This document shows, piece by piece, positions 12,402-47,750 of a stretch of DNA of 64,000 nt. The position numbers were made by a program, and so were the translations under genes. Position 1 is the stretch's first letter. Every line of letters begins with the position of its first letter. The notes under the pieces were generated by a model that was given only the letters and a program-made list of their open reading frames with translations, searched no databases and was not told the origin of the DNA. The stretch covers positions 2,356,001 to 2,420,000 of the forward strand of contig OZ374563.1 of NCBI GenBank assembly GCA_977862235.1, written 5' to 3'. This stretch comes from Dudresnaya verticillata (Eukaryota).

Positions 12402-13892
12402 AATGAAAGCCTACAGCTTGGCTATTACAAAAGACACTTAGCGGGGTCCTGAAAACACACGCCTTGGAAGGCCGAGAGAAGTGCGATGAATAGTAATCAC
12501 AGGCGTAACTGGTTCTTGGAGGTTGTCGGAATACCTCGATCTTGGCAAAGAGTTCTGCAGATCTTTGTCGAAAAGCAATTGCCTTGTTCTCTACGAGATT
12601 TCGAAAAGTCGCGCCTCACCGTAGCGATGTCTGCTCTGGGTGCGAAGTAAGGTCTCCAGCCAAGTTTGGAGCCTTCCCGTGTAGAGAGGCTCTCGAAGAT
12701 GAAACTCTAGCCGCCCGATCAGGAAGGCGCTTGCAACAGGCTCTGGAGAACTTGCAAATATTTGTTTCTTCTCGTCGAGAAACCTGGACAAATCCAGCGA
12801 CATTACTTGATCTGTAATGTCTGCTCACGAATTACACCAAAAAAAGGGATTTTTTGGGTCAGCAGCACCCTCGGCAGCCGTTGCTCTGTGGGGTGCCCGG
12901 CCGCGCTGCCATGGGGCACGCGGCTACATCCTTGACGACATTTATGGAAACAACTGACCAGTTTGATTTTTGCTTGATTTTAGGCAGGAAGAACATCTTC
13001 TTGCCGGCAGCGACCGAGCTTTGCCACACATGGCCCGTCCAACTGGGACACTCCGGTCCCAAGCCGCTGGGAGAGCTGCTGCTGCGTCTTGCATCTGCAC
13101 ACGGGCAGCGAAGGCCCGGTCACGTTGACAAGTGGATCGGCGCGCATCACTCCCACGATGGTGTCGCAACGGCATACTGGTAGTAGCGCATTGCTGAAAG
13201 AGTATTTCAGACCGACCAACTTCAGTAACACAACAATCTGGCCAAGCAACATTTCGTTCTAAATCTTTCCCTTCCCTTCTCTGTTTTGATTCTTTGTCTT
13301 ATACACTCTTTCGTCCTTTTGTTGAAGTCGAACACAGCGGTAATGGCATTTAAATATTTGTTGAACAGTTTTCGTAGATTATGGAAATGCGTGAACGATT
13401 TGGAGCAATTACGTGTACTCTTGGTGTCCAAAAAAACACGAATGTACGTCGATAATATTTCTCTCTAGTCAGTTTAGACCAACAGGAGTGCCAAGGTGTC
13501 GAAGCAAATATTCCAGAAAAAGGATTCTGAATAGACGAAAAAGGAGTTAAAACTGCGGTTGTGAAGGTGCCCAATTATATTACTGTGAAACCCATAAACT
13601 TCTGTAACGGACAGATGGCCAAACTTCCCATCACGGAACGTGGATGTGGTGTAGTGTGGTACAATGAGCCGCCAGGAGCTGTAAGCACGTACACGTGTTT
13701 TGCGCCTGTAATGCGCGGGTAATATTGCACGTGGCGTGCGCCTGTAATGCGCCGCACATACTGACGCACTGTAAGGCCCAGTGCATTGCTGACCACTCCA
13801 TATGGCATTGCTGGGAACAGCACGGCGCCAATGAGATGGCTTCCCGAGATTGGCTGGTTTATCATGGCCTTACGCGCAGGAGTGCGCCCGAG

Positions 13893-14690
13893 TGTAGCAG
13901 TATGGCACCGGCCAGAAACAGCAAAGAACAAGAAAAGACAGCTGTCCGATGTCACACGCTAATGTGTGGTAGCTCGAAGAAGGTTTGGTAGAGGCTTGGA
14001 AAGAGGCGGGCCCTGATGACCCGAAAGGGGGGCTGCGGAAGCACAAAGACTCGGCGCGACCGACTGAAGGAAGGTATAGAGGTTGCAACCCGGTATTTCG
14101 TAGAGTACTTGCCGTACGATGTCCGGGCGTGTACTGGGCGACCCCTGCAGGCGCGGAGCGCCCCAGCGACCAAAAGGTGGAAACTTCCCGAACAACTCCG
14201 CTGAGTGTTTATTCTGAGGGCGCCGGCTATTCTGGCGCCCATAAGTAGGGATTGATAGCCGAAAACTCTATCAGACCAAAAGGGGGTATAATTAGTCTAT
14301 GATTATAGATACAAAGATTAGTACAATCAGTACAATGTAAATAGGGGAATGCGTTCCAGTTCGAGGACTTGGTGGCGGATGCGCCGGTGTTCAGACTAGT
14401 GTCTCGGCTGCATTGTCGATACCCTGAGCGCAGAGGTGCTCCTCGTTTGTGAGTAGGAGCGCAGCGGCGCGTCATAAATCAGCCAATACGAGGCGTCCAA
14501 GTGGCGCCATTACACTGCCACGTGTACGCCACGTGTACAGCTGTAGGGCCAGGTGTACACACGTGTATCCCACGTGTCATCCACGTGTACAGCGATGAAA
14601 AGACAGCTGTCCTGATTAATGGACAGTCTGTCCCGCGAAAAGAAGTGCGCTCCTGTAAGCCCTTCTGCTCACAGCGTCCATACTGCCACT
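13893..14690 (-). mobile_element. Solo LTR (798 bp) inserted antisense in element 1 LTR, TSD CCGAG
   Basis: CCGAG at 13888-13892 and 14691-14695. Termini TGTAGCAG.../...TGCCACT (terminal CA mutated). Homologous to 47758-48077. Confidence 0.8.
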
Positions 14691-15090
14691 CCGAGTCATG
14701 AATATCTGACGTGCGCAGGGCGGATTACGACCGCTCACTACCCCATTGTAATTATTAACGCTAACTACGATAGCTTAGAATAGGAATGGCGCCGAAGGCG
14801 CTTTCGGCCTTCGCCATATTTATTGCGCCCCTGGCTAGCAGCGGTCTGCTGAATAGAACCGTACGATGGGTTTAGGGTCTGTACCCTTTCTTTGGTCTAC
14901 ACGGGCTCACCGTACTCCCCCTTCCAGGTGCTTTACAAGCTTTAACCTCGTACGGCTTCGTTCTCTACGAGTGTTAGGGTGGCGCCGCCCCCTTTTCCCT
15001 TTCTTTCAGGAACGCTACCCTTTTCCCCTTTTCCCTCAAGTCTCTACCAACTCCCCATTGAGCTACCCTCGTTATAACTAGGGTGTGTGC

Positions 15091-15712
15091 TGTAGTAGAA
15101 TGGTCCTCGGCCAGGTAGTCCGAGATAAAACAGCGCCACAGCTGTCCTGGGGACAAACACTCACGGTGGGCGGTACTTGAAAGGAAAAGGGAAAAGGTGT
15201 GTGGTAGAGCCTTGTAGTGGGTGAATACTCAGGAACAAAGGAAATGGAAGACGAACGCTACAGCGTAGAGCAATCTTCGTACACGATAGGGCTTGTAGAC
15301 GCCCAAGGAAAGGGAACAACGGTGGCACCGTAGGAAGGCCCGAAATGGGTACAGTCCAACGCACACACCGCTGCCTGTTTAGTGCGGGGGCCCCTGCTAC
15401 TCAGGGGCCTAATAAATACGGCGGGAAGCCGGAAATACTACCCACTCTAAGTAAGAGTTATATTACTGACAGTTACCTACTACTGTACACTAAAGGTGGA
15501 TTACAATCAAATGATGGAAATGAGTGGTAGTACCGCTACGAGTTACAGGCGCGCTGCTGTCTGGCGCGCAATGCCAAAAATATGGGTGACCATGATTAAT
15601 AAACCAATGGGACTCGGCCATCTCAACCATCGCACCCTCGAGCGCCTCACGCCTTACAGGCGTCGTCTGTACATGTTTGTGCTTACAGCGCTCGGGCGCT
15701 CATTATTCCACA
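15091..15712 (-). mobile_element. Solo LTR (622 bp) inserted antisense in element 1 LTR, TSD TGTGC
   Basis: TGTGC at 15086-15090 and 15713-15717. TG...CA termini. Inverted homolog of 52592-53255. Confidence 0.9.
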
Positions 15713-15781
15713 TGTGCACGCACGGGACAGCTGTCCTTGTCGTTTAGCGGGCCACTGGCTCGTCGCGCCATACTACTACAG

Positions 15782-15802
15782 TGGTCTCCCGACCTAGAAT
15801 CG
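15782..15802 (+). promoter_or_regulatory. Primer-binding site, tRNA-Tyr-like
   Basis: TGGTCTCCCGACCTAGAATCG lies 1 nt after the LTR. Its reverse complement CGATTCTAGGTCGGGAGACCA fits tRNA positions 56-76 with G72-A73-CCA. Confidence 0.75.
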
Positions 15803-16398
15803 GTTCTGGGTCGGTTCCCCTTATTATTACCTCAGCGTCAGTCCATCGCTTTGGAATTTTCAACGATCGAGTTTTCTCCTTGCAAGATCTCAAGGTTCGA
15901 CTATCTGACGTTGAAACCCTAGTCGTCCGGGCGACGACGGTCCCTAAGCTTCATATCAAGCGCTGGAGTCACCCCTACCGCCGTGGCGGTTTATTAAGTT
16001 CAACGAGCACACCCTAGTCGTGGATTGATGCCCCTTCCGGGAGAACCGCAACAGGTTATCGTAATACCTGTACAAAAAATACGTCCTTGTACGGGCTGTG
16101 CGGGCGCGCATTGCGGAAAGACCGCGTGGTCAGAATCGCCCGTAACCCCGAGAACGACGGTTCTGAAGAAGATTGCCCACTTGGAAAACTTCCCGTCAGG
16201 CAACCACAGGACCGATATCCCTCGTTTAGGTCGACAAGACCGACCTGAACATGCCGACTTCCAACGGCGATACCACCCGACCGGGGTTAACCAGTCGATG
16301 GTGGAAGCCGTTCCGGCAGACTTTCCTCCTTAAGGACAATTGGGACGAGAACCCGTGCAGCCGTCGCCGCTCTTGCCCCAAATCCTTTAGTAGGAGAA

Positions 16399-18916
16399 GT
16401 GGAACGCCCGCCCCGAATGGCGGGCGCTCCAGGAGATGAGGAACCACCTGTTCCAGAGAAGGGACAGGTCCCGAATGAAGAAAACATGGTCAGGACCCCT
16501 TCCGCAAGCGCCGCCACCTACGGCGCGAATGAGGGTCCTGACCCTAGTATGCCGCCGCCGTCCATCAGTCGGGCTAGCCAGCACGGTACGGGCGGACAGG
16601 CCCTAGAAGATGTGACCACGTCATCATTGCCCCCGGACATAGGGGTGGCAATGAGAACGAAAGCCAATTCGACCGACCAACGGTGTTTCTCAGAACGCGA
16701 GATAGGCCAGATGGTCGAATTGGGCATCGAAAATGTTCTCGTCACGTGCATCCGAGCGTTGCTCGAGAGTCAAGCTGACGAAACCCTCTCGAGGGTGAAG
16801 CGTTATTTCGACGACTCAACAGCCCGCCGGGGCGATCAATTATTGGCAAAGGTCCAAGAAGAGATCGATTCTCGATGTCGACAAACCTCCTCTCGAGGAG
16901 TAGACGAAGAACGGGTCGAGACCCTACAAGCCCAGGTCGATTCCTTGGGGGACCAACTTGGTTCACCAGGAATTAGACCAGGTTACAACGGATGCCGACC
17001 GTTCAAGACAAGAAGCCGCTTTGGCTATTTCAGACGCCCAGTTGGGCGCGGACAACACTCGTTGTGTTGAACAAGACAGACGCATCGAGCTCCCTCAACA
17101 GGAGCTCGATGCGGAGAAGAGTCGAGTCGCTATGATAGGAGCCCAAATGCGGCGACTCAACCGCGAAAGGGAAGTCGTCCCTGAGATAATGCGCCGTTGT
17201 TCGCCAGTGCCTCGAGGCACGCGAGAGCGTCGCAGAAGGTTACCCCATCACGGGTCAGGCCACGAATCTCAAGACGATGAGGAAATGGCCCGGTGTCCAA
17301 ATCACCTGGGGTGTAATTGCAGCCGACCGAGTCAACCTCGGTCTCGCCCCGATAGGCATTCGAGCCATCGACATGGTGGGAACCCCCATCCGGAAGCATA
17401 CCCTACCTCAGGGTCGTCCGAGGACGAAGAGCCACAGTTAAGAACCTTCTCCAGACCCTCCTGGTCTTCTTGGAAGGGACCCCGGCGTTCCGGTTTACAA
17501 GAACTGATTCCGAGGAACCCTGTCTTCGTACAGGTACTTTTATATCGAAGGTATAGGTTGTTGAACCTAGATGACTACAGGGGACCTGAAGTCACGGAGA
17601 CTACGACGAAGAAGATAAAACGGGTGAAGACCGTGATGAGAAGTCGCCGGTTCGACGGAAGTGACCCAGTATCCACTATTGGATTTCTCGCAACACTGAA
17701 ACGACAGCTGGACCAAGCTCACATTACTGAAGGAGCAGCTATCCTTGTCATCGCAGACTTTCTGGGGAAAGATGCCAAAGACATGTTTGAAGCGAACCTC
17801 GACGCTGCAGGAGATGATAATCGTGGATTCAGCGAGTGGGCCGAGGCCGTCAATTACCTTCTTCGCACGTATGCGAAAGACGTCTACATCGAGAGGATAG
17901 CCTCTGATATGGACACCATGGCACAAGAGCCGAATGAGGACGAGGTCACTTTCTCTCGACGGTTACAAAACCAAGCGCGACGAGTCGCTGGGGTCTACAC
18001 AGAGCAAGACTTAATAACACGCTTTATTAGGGGTCTTCTCCCCGCGGTGAAGCCGCTGTTAAGCACTACCTCTCTGGATCCACGGACCGCCCGTTTGACA
18101 GATTATGTCGAGCTCGCCACCGCCCGGGGAGATTCCCGTCGTGCCCTAGTGGGAGGTGGCCGAGCGAAGAAGGCGACCTCGACGCTGCATAAGAAAACCC
18201 TCGCGAAGATACGGACACACAAACCTGGTCGGGCACTTCTCATTCGCCAGTCGAGACGGTCGGGGGCATCTGACTCCGAATCCTCAAAGAGTAGCGACTC
18301 TGAGGACGACAACGAAGATGCCGTCGTCGCGGCTATAGACGAAGAAGCGCCACCATCAACGGCAACCCAATCAGACAGCTGGTCCTCCGGGCAGTACTCC
18401 TATGGCCAGCCATAATATGGCGAAGTGGATGCGGTCATCCAAAACTACAACCATAGGCTCCCAGCCTGGGCTCAGCCAACAAGGACGCAGCATCCTGGAT
18501 GGCAGACGGTCGAGGACCAACCAAATGACATCTGCTTTGAGTGTTGTGGCGTCGGTCATAAAGAGCCAAATTGCCCTCACCTGGCGCGTACGGACGAACA
18601 CTCTTTTGAGACTCTAAAAAGGAGGCAGTTCCAAGAGCTCTCGCATGAGCAGAAAGCCTGGTTGGCAACTGTTGGGCGACTACCCTACTTCGCAAATGGA
18701 CCGTTGTCGACAGGCCAAGCGATTGGGCCACCCACAGGCGCGCGTCAAAATATGGGGACGGGCGCCGGCGGAAATAGGCAAGTTCAATTTCATCCGGGTC
18801 TGGATCACCCCATCGACGCGCCAAGGCAAGCGCCGCGGGCACCAAGACCAGGGCTACGACCCGTTCCGCCACCACCACCGTTACCACGGTCGCCCGCGCT
18901 CAAGGAGAAACACTAG
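16399..18916 (+). pseudogene. gag: Gag of element 1 (frameshift near 17000, in-frame stop at 18413)
   Basis: Retrotransposon gag core 'FDGSDP...EGAA...FL...W...L...Y...Q..NE....F..RL' and CCHC knuckle CFECCGVGHKEPNC. Confidence 0.85.
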
Positions 18917-19085
18917 AGAGGGGGGAACCGGTTTCGGTTGACCCGATCACTCAGGTTACATCGGAACCCCCGATCGATTCGCTGAACGCAGCTTCACTAG
19001 CACAAGCTTCGACAGCTTCTCCACGGATCGACCGGTTTCACATGAGAATGTTGCTTCTGTTCCGAAGAACATCTTAACGCGCCCC

Positions 19086-22000
19086 ATGGGCTTACCCCGT
19101 GGTTGTACGTATGACGAGTATTGTAAGGACCCAGTCTTTTCCCTGTCACGCTACAACTATAAATTTGCTGCGTCCGTCGGGACTTCTGTGGAAAAAATCA
19201 CTCGAATACTATCCGTATTGGATACAGGGGCTGGCCCTAATCTGCTCCGGGCGGAAGTTCTTTCTCCGGAAGAAAGGAAGCGCATCTCGACGAACAGGTC
19301 GATCGTCAACTTGACGTATGCGTCGAGTCATAGACTAACTACACTGGGAACCATCTCGCTCGTTGTACGCGTGGGCTCATACACGGTTCGACAACCTTTT
19401 TTGTCGTCAAGGCGCTTGCAGTGGATGCCATCCTGGGATGCACGTTTATCGATACCCACGTTGAGGTTTTACGTGTTCGGAAACAGAACATCGTTCTCCG
19501 AGACGGGTCGATACACCCTATCCTAAGGCGCCGTTGCGGCATACCCCGTGAAGATCTACCCTCAGAACCAATGAATGTCCCTCCTTTAACTACCTCGCGA
19601 CTAATCCGCGTCGCCGAACGCACTAACTTACCGCCGGGCAATGAGACATGGGTCGTCGTGACCTGCTCGGCCCAAGGAACGCACTTCCTGGAATCATTTC
19701 CATGGTTATACGACCGTCAACACGTGGTCGTGACCAACGGTATAGTCGATCTAGAATCGAATCGGATCTTCCACGTGAATGTTGCGAACTTCTCGCCGCG
19801 CATGCAGCAGCTTCAGAATAATCAAAGCCTCGAAAAGGCTGTCCCAGCGCCCACCCGGACGCCGGTATACGCCATTTCCATCGAGGAATCTGATCCTGAC
19901 CTCAATCCTGACACCTCCGTGTCCAGTCCTCAACCGGACACATTCCCCGATTTGGGGGGCGCGACTGGCTGCTGCTCTTGGTAGTGAAGGCGCAAAGCCT
20001 GGAATTATAACAGCGACCTCTACGCCGTCTCCCATGTCAGTCGATGACTTGGCACTGGAGCACCTGTCCGGGCCGGACCGTTGTCGAGTACGAAAAATGC
20101 TCCGACCATTCGCCGGTATGTGGGACGGCGAGCTGGGAACAATCAAGGTGACGAAGCACCTAATTGAACTACAAGAAGGTTCCAAACCTGTATTCTGGCA
20201 ACCCTATCGGTCGGGCCCGAAAGCTAGACAAGTCGAACAAGACGAAGCAGACAAGATGCTTAAAGAAGGCGTCATCGAGCCTGCTCGCACGGAGTTCGCA
20301 AGCCCCGTAGTGCTGGTCAAGAAACCCGATGGGTCCCTACGTTTCTGCTTCGATTACCGCAAGCTCAACGCTATCACAGGTAAGGACACATATCCTCTCC
20401 CGCGGATGGACGAGTGTCTGGACTCGCTGGGAAACGCACAATACTTTACAACCTTGGATTGTAGTTCCGGGTATTGGAAAATTCCAGTCGAGGAAGATGA
20501 CAAGCACAAAACGGCTTTCACTTGCCATGCCGGATATTTCCAGTTCTGCAGAATGCCCTTCGGGCTCTGAAACTTTCCCGCGACCTTTCAACGTACGGTT
20601 GATATCCTACTCTCCGGATTCAGATGGAAAACCTATTTAGTCTATTTGGACGACATCATTATATTCTCGACAGCAGTCGACGAACACCTCACACACGTGA
20701 AGGGCATTCTAGAAGTACTGCAAGAAGCAGGAGTTTCGCTGAAACTAAAGAAGTGCCACTTCTTCACGAAGAGCGTTGACTACTTAGGTCACGTGATCCG
20801 CCCAGGACTGCTAGAAGTGGCAACCAGGAATACCCAAGCCGTCGAAGGGTTTAAGGATCCGAAGACTCAGACCCAGTTACGATCATTTATTGGAATCTGC
20901 AATGTTTACAGGTGCTTCGTGCCTAACTTCGCGCGCGTGGCGGCCCCACTAAACGCACTCTTACAAAAGGATCAGGACTTCGAGTTACCAACGTTCGACG
21001 AACGTCAACGAGAAGCGTTTGAACTTCTCAAGAAAGCGTTAGTCGCTCCGCCGATACTGTGATTCCCTCAAGAAGATAAGGCTCTCTCCGTCGACACGGA
21101 CGCCTGTGATTACCAAATCGGGTGCGCATTGATGCAGATGAAAGAAGATGGCACCCGACACCCCATAGAGTTTTGGAGCCGCGGCCTAACGAAGGCGGAA
21201 AAGAACTACTAGGTAGTCGGGAAAGAATGCCTACCAGTGGTCTGGGCAACGCAGATGCTTCGTCCATATTTGGAACGGTCCCACTTCGACCTGTATACGG
21301 ATCACCAAGCTTTAAAAGGGATGATGAGCATGACCGATGCTTCAGGGAGACTGGCCCGCTTGAGGTTACGCCCGTTGGAATATGATTTCACGGTACAATA
21401 CCGAAAAGGAAAGAAGAATCAGATCGCGGATGCCGTCTCTCGGCTGCCAACTTACGGCTTCACCCAGTGGGAACCGGACCTCGAGATCCCTTGTTTTGTA
21501 ATCGAAAACGATCGAAAGGACGCCTGCGACGAACGGTCGCCAGCGCGGAAACCACGGACGGGTGCACAACTCCAACCCTTAGAGGTTTGGGGATTCGAAC
21601 CTCGGGATGACGACCCTTCGGGTGACGAACAGCTAATAGCTCAGGTGGCCGACAAGGAATCACCCCAGAAGGGTCTCTCCCTCATAACAGTGGAGGAGCT
21701 GCTCCGAGAGCAAAAATCAGACGACTTCTGCGTCTGGGTCCGGTGGAACTTCGAGACGGGTAAGCCCGGCTGCTATCTCGAGGATAGGAGAGTACTCCTT
21801 GTGCGCAAGTCGTACGTAGACCACGTTCTACAGGTACTCGTACCTAGATCACTGAAAGAAAAGGTTCTACACCTAGCGCACTACCCGGAGTTGGCCAGCC
21901 ACCCTGGGGGTACCGGGATGTATCACAACCTTCGACGACAGGTATATTGGCCTGAGATGTCTCTGGACGTGTACGCGACAGTAATAAATTGCGTCAAGTG

Positions 22001-23423
22001 CGCCCAAGAGCGCGTCCAACTTCGAAAACATACTTCCCATATGAAGTTATTCCCGGCAACGTTGCCTTTGGAATTCATAGGGATCGACATCCTTGGGCCC
22101 CTGCCCCGTTCAGGCAAAGAAAATGAGTTCCTCCTAGTCATGACTCACAGATTCTCCAAACTAACGAGAGAGATACCGTTGAAGACAGTCACAGCCTATA
22201 CAGTGGCCAAGGCTTTCTGTGAGCATTGGGTTTTCATATACGGTCCACCCCGTTACGTCCTTTCGGACAATGGCTCGCAATTCGAGTCAAAGTTCTTCCT
22301 CGCGATGTGCGACATCCTTCGAATTAGGAATATGTTTACGTCAACCTATCATCCGCAGACGAACGGTCAGACAGAACGATTCAATCGTACCCTCCTAGCG
22401 GGGTTGCGACATTTCATCGCCGAAGATCAGAAAGACTGGATAGAGTTTACCTCTGCGTTAACGTGCACGTATAAAACTATTGTACATCGTGCTACGGGCC
22501 TGGCGCCCTTCGATCTGGCGTTATCTAACCCCCCGATATCCATCTTAATGTAACAAGCAGAGATAGTGGACGTCGAACACGTGCCGGCGACTAACGTTAA
22601 GAAGCGGCTGACTCTACGCTTACAGAAGCTGATGGATACGGCCTTACCGCGGATGAAGTTAGCGCAACGGCGCTATGAAACGAATTTCAATAATCGGATT
22701 CGACCGGCTAACCAGAAAGTGAGACCTGGGTCTTGGGTTTTCCTAGAGAGGGAAACGAAGGTGAAGGACGCTTCAGGTGTGGCCCGCGAAGGGAAGTTGC
22801 TTCGTAAGGCTCTCGGGCCGTATAAGGTTCTGGAACGTGGAACGCACGTTGTCATTCTAGACATCAAAGGAGATAGAGAGACGACATCTCTGGACCGGGT
22901 TACCTTGGCCCCCTCTCCGCATTAAGAACCAAGCGCGCAGGGTCAAGACCCTTCAGTAGTGTGCCTCACGCCATAAAGCTCGACGGCGCCGAACGGGCGA
23001 GTTGGGGGCGCAAATGCGAACACCGATCCTCACAATCCCGAGAGACAGGGCGTTTCCGATATTACGGACAATCTGACTCTCGCGGTGCCGCCTACTTATG
23101 GAACAGCCATACCGAGTCCCCAAGATGCAGTGGCTGCGGCCCCTCCCAATCCGGATCGCGATCCTGTAACCGCCGCGCCCAGCACACCGGCGACAATGCG
23201 GAACGACCCCTCTTCCCCAGGGAAGTTTTCTCGTTTTAAGAAAGCGCCGCCACGCGAGCGAGTTTACGATCGCATCGTGTTGTATGATGCCGGTCGACAT
23301 CTCTACCGCATTCGGTGGTTTCAAATTCCAGCGTCAGAAGACACTTGGGAGCCCAAGGAACATCTTCCTCACAATCTGGTGGTAAGATACCATCGAGCCA
23401 AAGGGGTCGCTCTCCCGCAATAA
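19086..23423 (+). pseudogene. pol: Pol of element 1: protease, RT, RNase H, integrase, chromodomain (stops and frameshifts)
   Basis: LDTGAGPN, SPVVLVKKPDGSLRFCFDYRKLN, YLDDII, TDHQAL, HHCC zinc finger, IDILGP, SDNGSQF, HPQTNGQTERFN, GPY, chromodomain YRIRWF...EDTWEPKEHL. Confidence 0.95.
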
Positions 23424-23671: not shown

Positions 23672-23857
23672 TGTATAGATGGAAACAAAGGAGTCAAGAC
23701 TCTGAAAATGGATAGATGTAAGGAGTGGATCCTGGATAGATGTGTGGAAACGGATAGATGAATCAAGAACCTAGATTCTGTATAGATATGGAAATGGATA
23801 GATGAGTCAAGAATCTAGATTCTGGATAGATGAGCTGTATAGCTACATGGATAGATG
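23672..23857 (+). repeat. GGATAGATG motif array downstream of pol (element 1)
   Basis: Six exact GGATAGATG (23710, 23734, 23752, 23796, 23824, 23849) plus GTATAGAT variants. Confidence 0.9.
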
Positions 23858-24815
23858 TGAACCATGGACGTCGCTCGTATGAGGGACCCGAGGATTTAGA
23901 TCCTGAGTCAGGGCCTATGCCCTGGACAACGCAGTCAAACGCTTCCAGTTGAAACTGAGGGATATGCGGCGGGAGATATCAACAAAGCCAGTCGAGGCGA
24001 GCAAAGCCATGCTTAGCTCTAGGGGCGAACCCCACCATAAGTTGACCAACTCGTCGAAGTCCAACCTCGGTGACGCTGCTCGCGAGTATGACGCATGCGT
24101 GCACGCTTTCGCGACCCCGGCGGGGCATTACAGACTGAAATAGGGCCAAACCTTTGAGCGTCAATTACGGCTACGGCAGAAATGCCGAAGCAGGCGCGAA
24201 GAGCCTCTAAGATGTATTGTCCTCGTTATGGGAAGCCTTCTTGGCAATAAGCCCTGGAGCATCGGGCAGAACCAAGGACGCGTAACCACGCTCAACAGCG
24301 CGACTAGCCTGCGAGGCGTTGGCTTCGCGCCAAAAAAACGCTACAGTACAGCCACTCGCTACTGTAGAGCCGAACAACTGTCGCTGATAGGTCACCACGG
24401 CCAGGGAGGCGGAATAGGGCTCCAATGGGGAGTCTCTAAATCAGCGTCTAACCGCTTCGACTACAGTGTTCTCCAACATAACTGTAGCATATTAAAACGC
24501 ATTGCTGGAGTTGCCCCCTTCGCCGCACGGCCTCAAGGAGGCGGATTGGCCCCCACTGGGAGTCTGCAGACTGGCTCATGTACCACGGCGCGTGGTGGCA
24601 CACAGCACGCGAGCTCAATTCGCCCACTGCCTCTATTCTGGCGCTGACCCCAAGCGATGCGACTCCGCTAAGTCTCAGAGTGAGAATACTATCACACCTC
24701 AAACGCGCGCAACGCCTACCAAAGGAAGTGATTCTAAGCATACAAGACGGATTTATTTAGCGGGCCAGCCAATCAAAAGTCTAAGGCTATAAGCCTGGGG
24801 CTAGCGCACGACGCG

Positions 24816-27131
24816 CTAGTCAGAAAGTAGGTCGATGACCTCGTTCTCCTTGAGCGGAGGATGGGGCCCAGACGGCGCCCGAGTTGTCGTGACACGACGC
24901 ACTTCGCGCAACACTCTAGCTTGACGAGGGCCACGACCACGACGAGTGTCGAGGCCATCATGAGTCCCGCCAGCACGGCCTGACACTTGGCCCTCGATGT
25001 CCATGGGCGAGCCATCGCGCTCACCCTCGCCCTCCATGGGCTCTATTTTCTCCTCCTCTTTGAGGAGGAGCTCCGTCTTCACGATGACTTCCGAAGTCAT
25101 CCGGTCTGACGCCAAAGGCTCTCCGGCCGTAGCGGGGACCTTCGTAGTTCCCCCTTGAGCCCCGATGGGCTGGATTGCGACAGACTGGTCCGGCGGCGGG
25201 ACCTTCTGACCTTGGTCATTCGTGACTTGATCGACCTCGGCGGAAGCCGACGTAGGCGACTGCACAGACCGCACTGAAGCCAACTCGGGCTAACCAGCCG
25301 GCGCTTCGACATTTTCCTCGCGGGGGATCTTGCTTGTATCAGCCTCAGTGGCTTCACGGGCGTCGAGGCCTAACTTGGCAACAATCGCCCCTTTAGCTAC
25401 GGGCGCTGGGCGCTGGGGGTGACCAAATCCCTTACGGATCTTCTTTCCAACTCCACCTGTTGGGTCTTCAGCTTCTTCTGCTTTAACACCACCCAGAGGC
25501 GGTAACGCCTCAAGAATCGCCCGAAGGTGGGCTTGCTCCACGGGACCCGGAGCCTCGATCCAATGCGCCTCGTACTCGGCTAAGACTTCTTCGACCCAGT
25601 CGGCCAGACTCGCCAAGTTGAGGTTATGAACGTTCCAGTGCACCGTCAGTCGGATATCCAAACCTCGGCGGTTAAACACGTCGCGGATTTCCGCATCTGC
25701 ACGATAGTGGTGAGCCACTGAAGGCGCGTACGGACCTTGCGGTTGGCCGTCGAAAGTGTCGTCGAACGGCGGCACCTCTTCGAGGCTAGAAGGGCCTTCA
25801 TCGCGCCATTTCACACTTACCCAACCGCGGGTGTAGCCAGTCCGGCGTTCGCCTTCATCTAAGGCAATGGACCCTCCCTCGGTGGGAAGCTCGGCTAACA
25901 TGAAGTCTGGTAAGACTGGAAGCCATTTCTCCGGGTCGAACTCCACCCAATCACCCCGATCAAAGACGGCCGTGATGTGCCCCGTATTCTTGGGTAAGAA
26001 GAAGTTGCGCTTAGTCACTCGACTCCATCGAATACGTTCCACGAAGGAAAGGATGGCGTCGAGATCGGCGGCATCTTCCGCTGTGGCGGTAAAGGCAGAC
26101 GGGCCGAGGGACCGAATACACGCCTGAAGGGGCTTTCCAATGAAGTACAGAAAGCCCCGACGGGCTTCATACACGAAAACTTGTGTCAACATCACGATCC
26201 ACTCGTGCCGGAATATCGTCCAGAGTAGGGACTCGTCGTAAGCCACATTCATCATCTCCAGACCGAGATAAGCCACGATTGTAGGCGTGCCCATGGGCAT
26301 CGAGTACGAGACCTCCAAAACAGCCTGGACGTCAGGCACTTGAGGATACTTGATCCGATAAAACTCCGGACGGATGGAAGTCACTTCCTGGAAATGGGCC
26401 GGAATGAAGCAGCCAGTACGATGGCGGAGGCGGCGCTCGAAGCGCACTAAATCCGACGGCATGGCCGTTTGAGTGTTGTCCAGGGCATACTTAAAGTTTG
26501 AGTTATCGTCCCAGCGGACAACACTCGCCGTCGTATACGGGTAGCTGTCCCTTCCTGGACGAATGAACGGCCGTTGGTGGCACACGATCGACAGATCGAA
26601 AACTCCAGTTTTATGGATGGTTTGGACCTCCTTGATCCGGAAGTTGATGAGCCTCTCCAAGGCTGAAGTGTAAAGGACCTCATGGCGAAAACGTGGATGA
26701 GCGAGGTCCCACTTCCAAGGGCCTTCGATGGTAGGCAACTCCCGGTTGGGTCCCGTGAGTATACCAAGACCCTGACGAACGTGCGCATGCCACGTGCGGC
26801 GCTGTGCACGTCTTGCGCCGCGTCGGCGGATCTCGCTACGGTCGGCTCCCGCGTTGGCCTTGATGTGTGCAAGATCTGTGCGCACACGCCAATCGCGGCT
26901 ATTCTTTATTGTGATCGGTACCCTTGCCTCGTCCATTTCGAAGCCGAGGACTCTAACGCTGGAACCGGCGCTTCCAAAAACCATCTGCTGCTTCGTACTC
27001 ATGATTGAGTTCTCGCATGAATAAGCCACGTCGAGGGACCGTGAAAAAATCGTGAGCCGCGAAAGCGATACTGGATGCCCGTCGACACGGGACACCTGAC
27101 GTCGACTGGGCGTACGATGATTTGTCGCCAC
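24816..27131 (-). CDS. Antisense accessory ORF of element 1, unknown function (~728 aa from ATG 27002, one internal stop at 25290)
   Basis: 613-aa ORF continues in the same frame into 24816..25283. Clear homologs at 31156-33249 and 48224-49600. Confidence 0.85.
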
Positions 27132-27265
27132 GCGGCCGTCGCGAGACGGGGGTTTTGGTGGCGGTTACACCAGCCCTCAACGGGCCGTTTGCGACATCCC
27201 CTGCGCGTCCGCCCCAACCGGGCCAATGGAAACAGCCTTGCTTGCTTCGCCGGTCTCTCGGCTTT

Positions 27266-27377
27266 AGAGAGGGGGCCGTGTGGTACAATGAGCCGACAGG
27301 AGCTGTAAGCACGTACACGTGTTTTGCCCCGGTAATGCGCTGGTAATATTGCACGTGAAGTGCGCCTTAATGCGCTG
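27266..27377 (+). repeat. PPT (AGAGAGGGGG) and truncated 3' LTR (27279-27377) of element 1
   Basis: Purine tract followed by TGTGGTACAATGAGCCG..., matching 13655 onward for ~99 bp, then an abrupt switch to RNase H coding sequence. Confidence 0.88.
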
Positions 27378-29700
27378 CGAGAAGGAATGCCTCGCTGTAG
27401 TCTGGGCTACACAAATGCTGAGACCATGTTTGGAAAGGTCCCATTTTGACCTGTACGCCGACCATCAGGCTCTGAAATGGACGATGAGCGTGACGGACGC
27501 GTCCGGACGTCTAGCGCGATGGCGCCTATGTCCCTTAGAATACGACTTCAAGGTTGAATACCGTAAGGGGAAGAAGAATCAGATTGCTGACGCAGTCTCC
27601 CGGTTGCCCACCTATGGGTTTACTACGTGGGAACCGGATCTTGAGATCCCCTGCTTTATAGTCGCTGATAGCGAGAGGGAAGATCCTCCCGACCCTTCGG
27701 CGAAGGATGAATCGGGAACCAAGACCAGTTCGCGACCCTTGGAGGAATGGGAGATAGAAACAGAGGATAATTTATTCGAGTCGAGTCTCGAGGACGAGCG
27801 ATTGATAGCCAATGTGGCTGAAACGGAAGTGGACGAGAAGAGTCTTTCCCTTCTCACAGTAGAGGAAATCCTTCGCGCGCAACGAACAGACAAGTTCTGT
27901 AAGGGTATCAAGATAGCCATCGAAGCTGGAAAACCGGGATGCTATCTGGATGACGAACGCGGACTCCTGGTCCGAAGGTCTTACATTGATAGGGCTTTGC
28001 AGGTACTCATACCTAAAGTTCTCCAGGCGCGAGTCCTACATCTCACGCACTACCCAGATATGGCCTGCCATCCTGGTGGCACGAGGATTGTGGGATGTAC
28101 CACAACTTGAGAAGGCAAGTATATTGGCCAGACATGGCCCTCACCGTTTACTCGACAGTGCGGAACTGTGTCAAGTGCGCGATGGAACGAGTCCAGTTGA
28201 GAAGACATACTTCGCACATGAAGTTATTTCCGGCATCATGCAACTTGAATTCCTAGGAATTGATATCTTGGGCCCATACCGAGACCAAGCAAAGGGAACG
28301 AGTATCTTCTCGTCATCACCGCTCGTTTCTCGAAACTGACACGGGTAGTCCCGTTGAAGACGGTGACGGCTTATAATGTAGGAAGAGCATTCTCCGAAAA
28401 CTGGGTGTACATCTACCGGCCACCCCGTTACGTCTTATCCGATAATGCATCGCAGTTTGCTTCCAAGTTCTTTATTTCCCTGTGGCATCCTCCGTATGCA
28501 GAATATGTTCACATCTACATATCACTGGCAGACTAACGATCAAACCGAAAGATTCAATCGCACCCTTTTAGCAGGGTTGAGACACTTCATTGCAGATGAC
28601 CAAAAGGATTGGGACGAGTTCACGTCTGAACTGACGTATGTATATAATACGACCGTTCATCGTGCAACGGGATTCGCGCCTGTCTATTTGGTTCTATCCA
28701 ATCCAACTACTTCTATCCTAATAGATCGAGCTGAAACGGTCGACGTGGCCAACGTACCCGCGACGAATGTCAAGAAGCGGTTAACCGCTAGACTTGAGAA
28801 TCTGATGTATACAGCGTTGTCTCTGTTAAAATCAGCGCAACGTCGCTATGAGGCTAACTTCAATAACCGCATGCGTCTGAGTATTCAGAAGGTACACCCT
28901 GGGCAATGGGTCTTTCTCGAAAGAGAGACTAAGATGAAAGACGCTAGAGGCGTGTACAAGAAGTAAAACTCTTCCCGAAGGCTCTGAGGCCTTATAAGGT
29001 CCTCGAGAGAGGAATGCACGCAGTCTTGCTTGAATTCAAAGGCGAGCGAGAGTCGACCTCGTTGGACCGCGTGACCTTATCGCCTTCGACAGACAAAGGG
29101 CTCGGAGCCGAAGGACAAGACTCCACGATAGTTGGTGAAGCACCAGAAGTCGAAGAGCAGAGGCCACCACCATCTGGACCTGAACCCACCTCTGGACCTC
29201 CCACTGAAGGGGCACCAAGAACTAAGGATGAGGAATCCTCTAGATGGGCCACGGGTCCCGCAAATGCCACGACTGTCTCCCCTCCAGCAATTAGAAACAC
29301 TGAAAATATCGATAACACCGTGGGATCTGTTTCTCCTAGTATACTCCCCACAGGGGTTCCTGTTACACTATCGCCAGGCGGTACGGCCTTACGTAAAAAC
29401 TCCTAATTCTTACAGGATTCAGGTCCGGCCGCCGCTCAGGCGGCAACGCCACGATGGAGAGCAACGTGAATGCGCCTCTCCGTACGTTTTCTCGCTACAA
29501 GAAAGCACCCCCACGTGAGTACGTTATGACAAAATCGTCGACTATGATGCCGGTACCCATAAGTACCGTATTCGATTGTTCCAATGCCCAGCGGCGCAAG
29601 ACACCTGGGAGCCACGGGATCATCTCCCTGAAAATTTGGTCAAACGGTACTGCCGCTCAAAGAAGATCCCCCTTCCAGGAGCAGCTGCCGACTCACTGGC
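27378..29700 (+). pseudogene. pol: Pol 3' half (RNase H, integrase, degenerate chromodomain) of related element 2
   Basis: EKECLAVVWATQMLRP, DHQALKW, TERFNRTLLAGLRHF, SLDRVTL and KKAPPRE motifs, paralogous to 21237-23423. Confidence 0.9.
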
Positions 29701-30004: not shown

Positions 30005-30127
30005 TGGATAGATGAATGGATATTCAAGATTTGGATAGATGAATGGATCTTCAAGATTATGGATAGATGAAGGGATATTCAAGATTCTGGATAGATGTAC
30101 AGAAGTTTCAAGCCCTGGAATAGATGA
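30005..30127 (+). repeat. 27-28 bp tandem array with GGATAGATG core (element 2)
   Basis: GGATAGATG at 30006, 30033, 30061 and 30089, plus a variant at ~30118. Confidence 0.9.
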
Positions 30128-31155
30128 GATCAAGGGAGATCTGGAACCGGGGAGACCCTGTAACAATCAGAATTGAGCCAACGCTCACCTGTATCGAAAA
30201 CAACACTACCCCCGGCAGGAGGGAAAGATGGGCAAGCCCTATATTTATATGGCAACCCCGTCATGGGGGGATGCTCCAGAGAATTACGGGATTGTGACCC
30301 AGAGGCATGGATATACCATCATGTTCGACTTGACCACCACTGTACTAATCGTGATGGGAGTCCACACTCGTCTGCCTTAGCAGAATTCTCACAACTTTGT
30401 CGCCATTGCGAGGCCGTTGCGGGTTAGTTTCACTGCCATGGAGAAATCGCTTCACCATGATGGTGACCTGCGGGCAGCAGATTTTGGTATGCACACCCTG
30501 GTTGACGAAAAATAGGGAATTTTAACAACCATCTCCGAAGAAGAGGACGACGTGCTGCTCCAAGCTGCACGGAGGCGGATTGGGCCGCGAATCAGCGCCA
30601 TGGATGCGGAATGATCCGCGAATCAGCTATGGCTGAGGAGCCCCGCATCGATTGGCTCCAAAAAGCGCGCAACTCTACAGTACATTTTCGCTCTACTGTA
30701 GAGTCACGTCTATCACTGCTGGCATTAATTGATTTGGCAAAGCGGCAAGGGAAGCGGATTGACTATCGAATCACAATCGTTTGGAACCACAAGCCACGGG
30801 GCGGTGTCCCGGCATCTCCGGCTCTAGCTACCAACTCCCTTGCGGGGCGTGGTATGCTGCGCAAGTTCATGGAACCCTCTCCCGGGCTATGAAGGACAGA
30901 GGCAAAAAAAGGGGCGACGGCCCTGAGTTACAGGCAGTCACTCGACGGAAGTCGATGGGGGCTCCCTCGGGGCTTAGTCGCGGATGCGTGTTAGTGATGC
31001 CCACCTATGTCGCTGTTTCTACCATTGGGAATCGGCTAGAGCGGAAGTGACACAATTAACAACAAGTCACTTTACTTCAGCGGGTAAGCCGCTCTTGCCA
31101 AGTGTGACGAATTAAATTGGGTAACGAGCCATTACTCGAAGACTGACAACTTCGG

Positions 31156-33249
31156 CTAATCCGATAACAGGTCAATAACCTCATCTTCACCCAACGGAGG
31201 ATTGGGCTGGGGTGGCGAGTGAGACGCGAAGACACGTCGCACCACGCACACGACGTGACGGCTCCCAACTCCGCGACGCGGACCACGGCCACGCCGACTA
31301 CCATTTAAATCGCTCAACCCCTAAACGCCCTCTGGGTTGGTGCCACTTGGATGAATAACCCGATAGTCGCCTTCGAGCAGCTAGCGTTGGGCTGACCCCG
31401 AGTGTCGTCTCGGGGCGAGATCGTGTTTAGGAACTCGCCAGTGGCCATGAAGCCAGACATTTGCGTCATATGAGCAGCCGTTGCTATCGTCGATGATGAG
31501 GCACCAGCTGTATTGATTGGCTTGGGAGCCGAGTGGGCTATGGCACCTCCATGACTAACAGAAGGGGCCACCACTGACTCTTCGCGAGGAATCACCGAGG
31601 TGTTACCACCTGGCAGGGCACGGGGGTCCAAACCGTCGACTCTACTCGACTCCTTCTTATTCCGCGGTGCCCCCGCCTGCCCCAAGACCAAACACGGTTT
31701 GATTTCAACATCACTGGGGTATCCCTTCAAAGGCGGAAACCTTGACAGGTAGGCACGGAGATTCTCCAAACGCTCCACAGGACCCGGAGTCCTCATCCAA
31801 TGGACTCATAGTCCACCATAACCTCCTCGACCCAGTCTCAAGGCTATTAACGGTGAGATTACATAGCTCTCAATGCACCGCGAGGCGGATAGCCATCCCT
31901 CGTTTCTTGAAAACGTCACGAAGGACGTGATTGGATTTACCATGGCCGGTCGCAGAGGGCGCGTATGGACCTTGATGTTGACCATCGACAGTATTGTCGA
32001 ACGAAAGGACGTCTCCTGGAGTCTCTGGGCCGTGGTCCTGCCAACTGGCACTGACCCATCCCTGGGTTACGCCGGTAATGCGGTTTCCTTCATCCAAGAC
32101 CAGGGATCTCTCCTCTGTCGGCTCGGGATGAATCAAGAATTCCGGCAACATCGGATGCCAGTCTTCTGGATCAAAGTCCACCCAATCCCCTCGATCATAC
32201 ACTGGGGTAAAATGACCGGTACAGTCGATCCGCGATAATTGAATACTCGATAATTGTATAATTGCGGTATTTGCATGATAGATCCGACTCCCACCACGGG
32301 AGCCTTCAAATGTTAACCAAAAAATCGGCCTCTATTCAAACTCGCTATTTGCATGGCTCAATCTCGATCGCAGGTAGTCCAGATTGAGCCAGGAGGGGGA
32401 TCAATGAGGGCAATGCCCTGCATGGCGCGCTGCAGTGTTGCAGATTTCTAACTGAGGACAAACCGCGCGCTTTTCAGGCTGGTTAATCGCCCGCCACATC
32501 GCAACCCATTTAAAACGGCGGGCGTCAGGCGGGACAGCTCACAACAGGCCCCTGCACCCCGGGCCGCACTTAAAGCCGTTGATATCGCGAAGCAAGTCCT
32601 AGGCGCGAACCCGGAGCATTGCGGGGCGGGGCGGGGATGCGCGCCATGAATCGTTTGCAGGCCGCTTTGCGACGCCAGAGGGCGGCGCGGCAACCCAAAC
32701 GACGCTGGATACGTTCTTCTCGCAAGTATGGGTATTCGGCACAGTCTATGAGTAAACGTCTTTTTGATTGATACGGCAATGTAACTTACAGTACCGATAG
32801 TTGAATATGACCGCCTATTGCATAGGTGTCCCGGCAACCGTTAATATGCAATTATCGCGGATCTACTGTATTCGCAGGGAGATGACGCTTCCGCTTGGAG
32901 ATTCGGCTCCACCTAATACGGTCTATAAAGAATAGAAGTGCCTTCAAGTCCTGGGAATCTTCGGCGTCCGCCGACAAATTTTTGATACCCATCTCCTTGA
33001 TGGCAGCGCGAAGGGATTGATTGATGAAGTACAGCATCCAGTGACGAGCCTCATAGACGATAGTCCGGGCGACCAAGACGATCCGCTCGTGACGGAAAAG
33101 GTCCAGAGTACACTCCCATCCATGGCTCGCGCCATCATGTTCAGACCAAAGTAAGCCACGATGGTGGGGGTACCCACTAGCATCGAACATAGGACCTCAT
33201 ACGACGCGTGGTCGTCGGGAAATTGAGGGTATTTAGCCCTGTAATACAT
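31156..33249 (-). pseudogene. Antisense accessory ORF, copy 2 (5'-truncated, frameshifted, split by a MITE)
   Basis: YRAKYPQFPDD..YEV..SM.VGTPTIVAY.GL.MM, FRHE, RIRWSRI, DRGDWVDFDPE, and C-terminal PPLGEDEVIDLLSD*. Confidence 0.85.
32222..32868. mobile_element. Non-autonomous Tc1/mariner-pogo-type MITE (647 bp)
   Basis: TIRs CAGTCGATCCGCGATAATTG / CAATTATCGCGGATCTACTG (1 mismatch in 20) with TA on both sides. Removing it restores 'LPANT-GHFTPVYDRG'. Confidence 0.9.
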
Positions 33250-33576: not shown

Positions 33577-34499
33577 TTGGGCCAAGGTGGGGGCACTGGA
33601 TTTTTCCGGTTTGAGCGCGTTAATATGACTCGTCTATCGACTCATACCGCCTGAGGCGTACTCAACCGCCGTTGGCGCGGGTACGTTGGCGACGTACGCT
33701 TGTAGGCGCTTTGTGCCGAAATGTCCCCCTGCGTATGTACAGAACATTTCTCGTGCCGGACCTGTACTGTAGAGCGATTTGTTGGACGCGGAAACACGTT
33801 TGACACGCGCTAGCTGCGATCAGAGTGGTTCAAGCATGGGCTTGCCGTTTTTCCGTTCTGAGCGCGTGTTATAAGATAACGTCTACCAACGGAAAAGTGC
33901 CCTCAGCGCTCCAGTCGCCCTCGGTACGCGAACACGTCACTGAAGAGTTACCCACAGGAGCAGGGCTCCGCAACCCCGCGCAGGAATGGCGCCCTGGGTG
34001 CTGTACGCCCGGCGTGCCACCGATTCGGATGGCACATCGAGATCAGCAGAGTGCAAGGCAAGAACCTGTGAGCATGGCCAGGACCCAAATCGGATCCAGA
34101 TTAGACATCAGGATCGGGTATCGGGATTCATGCCGATGTAAGGCGTGCACCTGTATTGCGGGCACACCCGTAGTGCTCGCATAAATCGGGATCAGGACGG
34201 GGATCGCACGGACCGCGATGCGCACGCGCCTGTAAGCAGTGCGTGGCCATGTGTTTTTGTAAGCGCGGTATAGTACGCGCGCGGCAAATCTTTCAGAGGA
34301 ATGGCTGCATCGCGAGGTATACCTGTGAGACACACTACAGCGCAACACGTGTCCTTAGTTTCCGCTTGCCCGCCGCGGTGCCGCTGCCTGCACAAAAATA
34401 ATATTACTTAGGTAGTCCGTCTGAGACGTTGGAGTGAATCCCGGTAAGCCGGCCTTAGTCCAGACTACCCCTCCCGCGTCACCGCGTATCTTACCGCTG
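33577..34499 (+). repeat. LTR 5' part (GATCC-rich family), interrupted by element 3; left end approximate
   Basis: Diverged inverted homolog of 35533-36414 (e.g. TTAGGTAGTCCGTCTGAGACGTT vs TTAGGTAATCCGTCTGAAACGTT, and CAACCGCCGTTGGCGCG). Confidence 0.65.
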
Positions 34500-35220
34500 T
34501 GTGGTGTAACGGCAAGGGGCCTCCAAAAAGGGGCCCATTGACCGGGCCACGCAATCCACATTGGCCAACACGCAGAAGACACTTGGCCCAAACCGCTACT
34601 GTACGGCCACGCGGACGGCGGTGGACGACGGAGAAAACCACGCGCACAAGACGTGGATTACACGTGGATGTGTGTCTGGATACGCGAATCTGGATCAATT
34701 TGAGATCGGATCAAGGAAAAGGATTTGGCTGCAATGCTCAATCACGGGGCCAAGCCTGGAAAAGTCAGGAACAAATCTAACTATTATGGCCACTGATTAA
34801 CTGACAAGTACTCTATTTAATTCGGCAAGGTTCTAACATTTGCCCGAAGTCAGGATTCGAGGAAGATATTTTGGCCATGGTGCATACCCTCGCTCACTAA
34901 CTAGAATAGACCTAGCTTAGCTCCAATTTTGGTCTATTGAGAGGCCCCTACACTACGGTTTAGCGAAGATGTGTACGAAGCCATCCCGCCAGAGGTTGGG
35001 AGTAAAGTTTTGCCACGTTTCCCCAACTTGGTCATTCCACTGGTCTCATCCAGTGTTTTGGCCACGACTTCGTCCGCGCGCTCCCACTCTACCACGCTTG
35101 CTACCGGCGCGCAGGTTCGTTCTACGTTCGACCAGTCTTCTGCGAAGTTCACTTGGTCTTCCTGGTCCTTTGGGGCTTCGTCTGGGCGCCGCACGCGGTG
35201 GTGCGTTTCCAGATACTACA
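34500..35220 (+). repeat. 5' LTR of Gypsy element 3 (721 bp)
   Basis: TGTGGTGTAACGGCAAGGGG...GATACTACA, followed by a PBS. Inverted homolog of 50535-51316. Confidence 0.85.
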
Positions 35221-35221
35221 C

Positions 35222-46803: not shown

Positions 46804-47750
46804 GAATGCGTTGCCTCCCAATTGGAAGGATAACGAACTTGCATTGAAGTCTCCACCATTATTAGGCGACACCAACAATGGCCGATTCATTTTCGAGAGG
46901 CCGTTTCCCTGGTCGTGCAGCTTGACCTTCATTCATACCGAGTGCCGTTCCTTATCGCCGACCTTCGTTTCGCCGTGCCCGTCTTGTTCGGTACGATCTT
47001 TTTGAACACACACGTGGATAGAATCCAGTGTCGTGGTCAAGCCGTGAACTTACTGCGCGAGGACGTCCTTCCATTACTTCCCGACAGCGCTTCGATGGCG
47101 CTGGGGGCAGACCCAACCGCTGCGAAGGGCGCCCCGCCTCGGGCTAATTCCAATTCTGCAAGGATGCCACGCAAGGCTCCACAACACTGCACAGCCACTG
47201 TACGGTTGACAAAAGGCCTGACCATACGTGCAGGTCAAGAGGCCACAGTAGATGTTCGCAGTGATGGCCGAAGGTTATGCGTGTTGGAGCCCAAACATTT
47301 GAATCTTTGAGCTATGTACGTATGGTGTCGGAAGCTCAAATCTTTGAGCTTCCGACACCATACGCGAATGGCCAATGGAGTTGCAGAGGTCGGCCGCAGA
47401 AGCCATTTCAGGTGATGCTGGCCAAATGAGGACGAAAAGATGTCTTACTGCCAAAGGGTACCGTGGTCGGCTATGCTGTCCGTCACCCTATTCCAATCCT
47501 GACGCCATACCGACAGAGTGTGGAGAATACGGCCAATGTACTCGGACCCACGCCTCTGGTGGACCAACATAGTAATCAAGTATAAGTAGAAGAAGGTTGC
47601 CAAGAAGAGGATAAGCCTCCGGAACCGAAGTTACCCAGAAAGGAGGAAGAAGAATGGCGGAATATGATCAAACTTGACCATATCCCGGACAAAAAGCAAC
47701 GTGATAAGATAATGAACATTGTGGAGAAACACAGTGGAATGTGGAACGTC
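46804..47750 (+). pseudogene. pol: Gypsy pol fragment (protease C-terminus to pre-RT region)
   Basis: 'LPPNW', 'VPVLFGTIFLNTHVDRI' (cf. element 1 DAILGCTFIDTHVEVL) and 'LDHI..KQRDKIMNIVEKHSGMW' (cf. LEHL..DRCRVRKMLRPFAGMW). Confidence 0.7.

Follow-up and report, generated by a model that had tools for sequence, protein, structure and literature searches.

The question raised by this locus is whether a large open reading frame (ORF), lying on the opposite strand to pol in a chromovirus-like Ty3/Gypsy retrotransposon, is a gene of the element in its own right and, if so, what kind of protein it would encode. Antisense ORFs located between pol and the 3' LTR are described in Grande, RIRE2, Retand, PvRetro13 and the fungal element Boty (PMC7264820), and the function of such accessory ORFs in LTR retrotransposons is presented as a standing open question (PMC7264820, PMC11963269). 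The window analysed here is a stretch of 64,000 nucleotides from Dudresnaya verticillata, within which the following features of element 1 and its immediate surroundings were delineated:

13655..15780, + strand: 5' LTR of element 1, with TG...CA ends
15091-15712, opposite orientation: solo LTR nested in the element 1 5' LTR, with a 5-bp duplication, TGTGC
15782..15794, + strand: PBS-like stretch of element 1, starting TGG one base past the LTR
16291..18916, + strand: decayed gag of element 1 (Retrotrans_gag, E 6e-6)
18942..23423, + strand: pol of element 1, with protease, RT, RNase H, integrase with GPY module, and chromodomain
24816..27002, - strand: antisense ORF copy 1, 728 codons from ATG to stop, with an in-frame stop at 25290-25292
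27266..27378, + strand: 3' end of element 1, with the PPT at 27266-27275 followed by the first 100 bp of the 3' LTR

Element 1 displays the features of a Ty3/Gypsy LTR retrotransposon, with TG...CA LTRs, a PBS (which we take to resemble the 3' end of tRNA-Tyr), a PPT, and a gag followed by protease, RT, RNase H and integrase in that order, the order being given by consecutive Pfam matches and the protease being read from the sequence. The surviving 100 bp of the 3' LTR are 92% identical to the 5' LTR, and the main frame of pol bears six internal stops, from 19779 on. The chromodomain at 23256-23393 (PF00385, E 1.8e-6, with additional Clr4/MPP8/HP1 matches) follows the integrase and is in frame with its GPY module, a GPY/F-plus-chromodomain arrangement typical of the chromovirus lineage. 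Since chromodomains may also be borne by non-chromovirus Gypsy lineages (PMC12477816), this domain-based assignment is worded no more strongly than chromovirus-like. Named organisms appear in 10 of the 120 rows among the listed pol matches, all of them Chondrus crispus at 40-57% identity. The 3' LTR ends at 27378, where it abuts the RNase H region of element 2 in what is a deletion or recombination junction. The nested solo LTR is 85% identical to an LTR in inverse orientation at 52593-53255, and a TGTGG(T/A)(A/G) start is common to several LTR families in the window.

Copy 1 lies antisense to pol between the element 1 chromodomain and the PPT, and is read in two consecutive stop-to-stop segments of the same frame (27164..25290, 624 aa; 25289..24816, 157 aa). 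The original prediction of an opposite-strand ORF of about 730 residues between the chromodomain-integrase and the PPT was right in position, strand and size, and wrong in taking the frame to be intact; the span it gave, 24816..27131, ends correctly at the stop and begins about 130 nt upstream of the ATG at 27002. Further copies, predicted after the element 2 pol and before the element 4 PPT and LTR, were found at both places, each antisense to its element:

27382..29677, + strand: element 2 remnant, with RNase H, integrase and chromodomain
31156-33246, - strand: antisense ORF copy 2, its 5' part gone, frameshifted, with the same C-terminus as copy 1
32222-32868, no strand assigned: MITE-like insertion in copy 2, 647 bp, inverted ends matching at 23/29 nt, TA flanks
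46903..47175, + strand: element 4 protease remnant (local E 3e-5), the sole part of pol retained
48224-49612, - strand: antisense ORF copy 3, ATG at 49612, with an N-terminal frameshift, one stop, a large internal deletion and a VKTE tail remnant

Copy 2 matches residues 214-728 of copy 1 in five pieces at 35-67% identity. The insertion that interrupts it has inverted ends beginning CAGT, and these ends, together with the TA duplication, rule out its being an intron. The core of copy 3 is 56% identical to copy 1 over 320 aa, and the stretch at its ATG aligns with the copy 1 N-terminus at a score reached by 0/2000 shuffles, which supports the assigned start. Copy 3 is taken to be antisense because the protease remnant of element 4 lies on the + strand; that element has a weak PPT, an LTR start at 50004 set by the shared TGTGGT(A/G)CAA terminus, and no partner LTR in the window. 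The position between pol and the 3' LTR is thus complete in element 1 and partial in elements 2 and 4, and the family profile, run against six frames of the window, finds no fourth copy beyond these three loci. All three copies are broken. The internal stop of copy 1 looks like decay, since the pol of the same element has six stops and copy 2 is open at the corresponding position; programmed read-through at 25290 was rejected on the same two grounds.

Several other features of the window deserve mention in their own right. Element 4 contains, in the gap separating its pol remnant from the end of its antisense ORF, a 330-bp piece (47747-48076) that is 82% identical to the interior of the element 1 5' LTR. 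A third element at 34484-39000 retains a gag remnant (37554-38363) and an LTR-like repeat that has an inverted counterpart at 50534-51331 (72% identity), with no antisense ORF homolog in view. Minus-strand pieces of a PIF1 helicase, with 21-bp and CAG/TGC repeats, at 39811-46000 are likely a Helitron remnant, and minus-strand MULE transposase and SWIM pieces occupy 56777-63892. Within the latter region, neither a 646-aa ORF (61952-63892) nor a repeat-rich 772-aa plus-strand ORF (56777-59095) has a Pfam match, and both may be accessory genes belonging to a DNA transposon. A stretch of 389 bp is 100% identical between the two ends of the window (253-641 and 63612-64000), owing either to a repeat of very recent origin or to overlap in the assembly. 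Beside the nest, likely host genes occur at 3472-4266, 6367-7935 and 10731-12410: one ORF is lipocalin-like (E 7e-10), one of 522 aa has no match, and one of 559 aa matches BTB weakly.

That the ORF is more than an accident of sequence is indicated by comparison of its copies at the codon level (Nei-Gojobori counts, 300 bootstraps). Copies 1 and 3 share 57% amino acid identity over 316 codons, with a pS of 0.749, a pN/pS of 0.40 (0.33-0.46) and identities of 0.68, 0.74 and 0.35 at the three codon positions, while copies 1 and 2 are 51% identical over 400 codons with a pN/pS of 0.50 (0.43-0.57), and copies 2 and 3 give 0.43 over 126 codons. Synonymous differences between the ORF copies are saturated (pS 0.67-0.75), so that corrected dN/dS values of 0.08-0.29 point in the same direction and are unreliable as magnitudes. 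The controls, with equally saturated pS, gave a pN/pS of 0.24 for the RNase H-integrase region and 0.39 for the chromodomain, such that the ORF is conserved across copies like other proteins of the element and under constraint resembling that of the chromodomain. Of the other five frames, four exceed a pN/pS of 1.2 and the mirror frame gives 0.50-0.54. That mirror frame, on the pol strand, contains 9-17 stops per copy versus 0-1 in the ORF frame, and the possibility that the ORF is a shadow of a sense gene was rejected for this reason. The pol sequences of elements 1 and 2 share 70% amino acid identity over 557 codons, the spacers of these two elements barely align, and the LTRs of elements 1 and 4 align no better than shuffled sequence, as had been noticed for the LTRs from the outset; the conserved peptide blocks quoted at that time are likewise all present. 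Saturated synonymous sites, kept proteins and spacers that hardly align together imply three long-diverged families, each retaining the ORF. The saturation, the chromodomain-like constraint, a minus-strand frame that is alone in being nearly free of stops, and a large, divergent protein family therefore uphold the proposal of a selected third gene, and the antisense ORF is almost certainly a real gene of these elements.

The protein family appears, from sequence searches, to be a deep one. A profile of the window copies recovered 161 relatives at E<=1e-3, 60 of them at <=1e-10, from 1.84 billion representatives searched, and the median core identity within the family is 26% (100 of 108 rows, eight being dropped for gaps). 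Clusters were looked up for 30 of the 150 listed among these 161 relatives; 12 have several members, 29 consist of unnamed environmental or run-assembly proteins, and the only named one holds four hypothetical proteins of Gracilariopsis chorda (PXF40140.1, PXF49255.1, PXF40362.1 and PXF47852.1). These four are 90.5-99.5% identical to one another and 23-26% identical to copy 1 (E 1e-14 to 1e-17), and their dispersal over four contigs, each differing in length, as near-identical paralogs is as expected of a mobile gene. Judged by the named relatives of pol and of the ORF, the host of the element is likely a florideophyte red alga. Family members were found in 0/303 and then 1/192 candidate metagenome contigs, in 0/84 and 0/31 viral contigs and in 0/41 prokaryote genomes. 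The single metagenomic case (L001:24-1264) is a frameshifted member on a 1.5-kb contig with no pol in view. No Pfam cut-off was reached in the window copies, 74 homologs, 14 further proteins or 19 alignment members, the only matches being below cut-off (1/74, 4/14 and 2/19 proteins, respectively), and the initial impression that no domain is recognisable thus held for the copies and homologs examined. In these same sets PF04195 (Transposase_28, of Retand antisense ORF proteins) and PF10536 (plant mobile domain, of Ogre) have no match by hmmscan, with the 19 alignment members scanned at E<=10 and remote likeness being beyond its reach. A word-index homolog search was blank with both the single protein and the 110-row alignment, which reflects the reach of the method, as the family proteins are part of the collection searched. 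NCBIfam gave a single weak match and none at cut-off among 46 proteins, PDB sequence searches returned nothing below E 0.4, and one ESM Atlas query with a G. chorda protein yielded no usable match.

A gene that is under selection need not serve the element that carries it, and the ORF might be a captured host gene, or a gene of another transposon, that merely rides along. The 161 relatives may lie in other contexts, and red-algal DNA transposons are described as bearing many accessory genes (10.1101/2025.02.11.637652; PMC6431247), both of which would leave room for such a passenger. Against it stand the constant placement and strand of the ORF in three elements with saturated synonymous sites, the chromodomain-like constraint, the absence of the ORF from the Helitron and MULE remnants of the window, and the near-identity of the dispersed G. 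chorda copies, and the passenger explanation is accordingly judged very improbable.

The alignment of 110 sequences, together with a structural model, divides the protein into two parts:

25860..26930, - strand: conserved folded core, residues 25-381
24819..25490, - strand: low-complexity tail of copy 1, with a basic stretch at 25445 and an Arg-rich block at 24944

The core of about 355 residues is marked by the blocks DWxxR, DxxxxRxxxExxY, FERxxRH, YxxxPxxWxxxEVP, PPxxxY, WxxxxxEW, GRLxW, W..P and GDxxxFD, in which W, P, G, Y and charged residues (D99, R104, E108, E189, R190, R193, E206, E230 and D351) are near-invariant. It is modelled with confidence (pLDDT 89.5, pTM 0.89) as a mostly helical structure with long ordered loops; three further helices, modelled less certainly, are present in a 492-residue model. 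The protein as a whole is predicted to combine a compact core, about 355 residues long and with N-terminal helices that are basic, with a tail that is disordered. Net basic charge is found at residues 35-85 in 58 of 68 rows and at 180-230 in 74 of 98, while the core taken overall is not basic, its net charge having a median of 0 and being positive in 44/93. Foldseek returned no match at E<=0.001 against the PDB for either the 492-aa model or the 357-aa core, and none against BFVD for the 492-aa model. Wide VIA-align searches reached at best Z 4.6 with the 492-aa model, on its C-terminal helices, and Z 2.8 with the 357-aa core (56 residues, rmsd 3.1). Such outcomes, none of them clear, establish neither a new fold nor a different one.

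The near-invariant charged residues of the core could form an active site, and the protein might then be an enzyme, a drive factor of the toxin-antidote kind or an aid to cell-to-cell movement that spreads the element without regulating it. This is improbable given that no catalytic or metal-binding motif is recognisable in the core, that neither Cys nor His is conserved, and that a protein without a hydrophobic segment, encoded antisense, is unlike env. Indeed, no membrane segment was found in copy 1 (Kyte-Doolittle maximum 1.19), and only 2 of 86 long homologs exceed 1.8. An env-like ORF3 was rejected on these grounds of orientation and missing transmembrane segment, in agreement with the earlier observation that the layout is not env-like.

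The family tails are rich in A, S, P, G and R. The tail of copy 1 holds a VKTE at 25082 that is common to copy 3, and a terminal VIDLL at 24839, copies 1 and 2 both ending in VIDLLSD. We take VIDLL to be SUMO-interaction-like, VKTE to be of the psi-KxE type and the basic stretches to be NLS-like. The pattern [VI][VI]D[LIV] occurs in 8 of 58 tails (1.2 when shuffled) and in 0/28 pol linkers, the narrow SUMO-interaction patterns having been chosen after the sequences were seen and being present in fewer than half of the tails. No enrichment is seen with a broader pattern (24/58 versus 20.9; 5/10 versus 3.8 in an earlier, poorly cut test). Basic NLS-like motifs are found in 12/58 tails versus 4.2 shuffled, and psi-KxE in 7/58 versus 3.3, a count reached by 14 of 500 shuffles.

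A clue to what the protein may act on is provided by the spacer between the chromodomain and the ORF:

23710..23857, + strand: six exact GGATAGATG 9-mers, chromodomain-to-ORF spacer of element 1
30006..30097, + strand: four exact GGATAGATG 9-mers, same place in element 2

These ten are the only exact copies in the window, where 0.38 would be expected and 0/100 shuffles reach the count; all lie on the + strand and within the two spacers. The array is kept in both elements that retain the spacer, the corresponding region of element 4 being lost, so that it is a short motif arrayed in the non-coding DNA of its own element. The repeat periods of the two arrays are 44 and 28 nt and the bases between motifs differ as well; a fixed 9-mer within a changing array, at a divergence where synonymous sites are saturated, points to a selected binding site, for which GGATAGATG is the candidate. 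Known from two elements, the array might just as well serve as an RNA signal or be recognised by a host factor. Neither the ORF nor pol is encoded in 72 viral stretches with two GGATAGATG 9-mers.

On this evidence from sequence patterns, it is tentatively proposed that the protein is a nuclear, sequence-specific self-regulator or anti-silencing factor that binds the GGATAGATG array of its own element. The array favours anti-silencing or self-regulation, the anti-silencing or targeting role being itself conjectural, as it was in the original prediction. The same array would also suit an accessory factor working on RNA, for example in Rev-like export, packaging or protection from small-RNA silencing, that recognises the purine-rich repeats in the 3' part of the genomic RNA. 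All ten exact 9-mers are sense-facing, downstream of pol and within the genomic RNA; both spacers have a hairpin at matching positions; the Arg-rich helices and conserved aromatic residues are of a kind suited to binding RNA; and retroviral accessory proteins are the analogy drawn in a review (PMC7264820). Tandem duplication alone, however, gives repeats of the same orientation, the hairpin is not significant in element 1, and the SUMO-type tail motifs would be better suited to work on chromatin, so that an RNA-level function is considered rather unlikely. The hairpin in question has a CTACAGT...ACTGTAG stem (24337-24369 and 30671-30703), lies about 450 nt past the ORF stop, and scores z -4.4 in element 2 and -1.7 in element 1.

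A further alternative concerns the chromodomain, whose aromatic cage of three residues (in the scheme for Group I chromodomains taken from PMC3350952) looks incomplete in both window elements, both of them decayed copies. Element 1 has Arg at the first and Ile at the third aromatic position, and Tyr occupies the third in 17 of the 17 pol relatives matched by pattern. The antisense product might then be an integration cofactor that aids nuclear entry of the pre-integration complex or tethers it to chromatin, alongside the chromodomain or in its place, a role to which the enrichment of basic motifs in the tails and the nested arrangement of elements in the window would also lend themselves. Yet the altered cage may reflect the decay of dead copies, perhaps only some of the 17 relatives carry the ORF, and the motif array is left unexplained, all of which makes a cofactor of this kind quite unlikely.

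If the protein is indeed a nuclear self-regulator, a separate antisense transcript would start at a promoter located in the 3' LTR or close to the PPT, its product would be imported into the nucleus and bind the GGATAGATG array as double-stranded DNA, the SUMO-type motifs of the tail would engage or displace SUMO-marked repressors, and cognate copies would remain transcribable in trans, kept out of silent chromatin. The silencing mark to be countered would more probably be one on histones than DNA methylation, because CpG is not depleted (observed/expected 0.95-1.11) and methylation thus leaves no trace. In Cyanidioschyzon merolae, H3K27me3 is described as silencing transposons, the chromatin of seaweeds being unexplored by the same account (10.1101/2025.02.11.637652).

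A close parallel to the proposed function is provided by the VANC proteins of VANDAL elements (MuDR), which derive from MAIN-like proteins (PMC13547354) and of which VANC21 and VANC6 bind 9-base motifs arrayed in the non-coding regions of their own elements (PMC5735166). As with VANC, an element-encoded accessory protein with a conserved core and a variable region is found here together with a 9-base motif array in the element's own non-coding DNA. Unlike VANC, which is encoded by eudicot MuDR DNA transposons and removes DNA methylation, the ORF described here resides in an LTR retrotransposon in which CpG is not depleted, no sequence likeness to VANC was detected for its protein, and its motif binding is putative. 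A point against the preferred reading is that VANC motifs vary between families, whereas GGATAGATG is unchanged between elements whose proteins are 51% identical. In its fullest form, the proposal is of VANC-like self-recognition in red-algal Gypsy elements by a new fold that binds the 9-base array and lifts repressive chromatin through SUMO-type tails; so specific a combination is doubtful.

Among retrotransposons, the Retand/Tat elements (Grande gene23, RIRE2 and Silene Retand) belong to flowering plants, are not chromoviruses and carry additional antisense ORFs of the aORF-3R type that are mostly Transposase_28. The element described here is chromodomain-bearing and likely red-algal, and no examined member of its protein family reaches a Pfam cut-off. 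Boty carries a chromodomain as well, and because it also has the antisense gene brtn, the combination of chromodomain and antisense ORF is not by itself the novelty. In the sources that describe it, brtn is the antisense gene of Boty/BcGypsy1 in Botrytis and Sclerotinia (PMC7264820, PMC8365987, 10.1101/2021.04.13.439636), and its presence shows that antisense ORFs, given at the outset as a feature of plant Tat/Retand elements, are not confined to them (PMC7264820). Like brtn, the present ORF is an antisense gene of a non-plant Gypsy element; the host of Boty is a fungus and the only named relatives found here are red-algal. A likeness to Retand lies in the combination of antisense ORFs with arrays between pol and the 3' LTR (PMC11963269), such arrays being reported there for about half of recently active Retand elements (PMC11963269), and the antisense product of maize Grande (gene23) is described as nuclear (PMC7264820, PMC11963269). 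In green plants, large extra ORFs are described as typical of the non-chromovirus OTA group and as falling into hundreds of unrelated protein groups, in a survey in which red algae are unsampled (PMC6317226). Conserved extra genes proposed to act on the chromatin of their own element are also described for red-algal Plavaka and EnSpm transposons (10.1101/2025.02.11.637652); those genes belong to DNA transposons and have recognisable domains, unlike the retrotransposon gene reported here.

This kind of gene is therefore already known, while the protein family is apparently undescribed and is accompanied by a candidate target motif. A literature search, with thin coverage of subscription journals and Repbase Reports, retrieved no publication dealing with antisense ORFs of red-algal LTR elements or with the G. 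chorda accessions; Repbase Reports, in which Chondrus elements have been curated, may hold an existing annotation. The family is entering red-algal gene sets as hypothetical proteins, and its recognition as transposon-borne would clean these annotations. With a deep alignment, a confident model, apparently whole members in G. chorda and a candidate motif beside the gene, it is also unusually tractable for the study of antisense accessory genes. Genome growth in most red-algal orders is attributed to LTR elements, whose silencing in seaweeds is described as unexplored (10.1101/2025.02.11.637652). Should the VANC-like reading prove true, the antisense gene would be the first case of sequence-specific anti-silencing by an LTR retrotransposon, and would drive the expansion of red-seaweed genomes through LTR elements.
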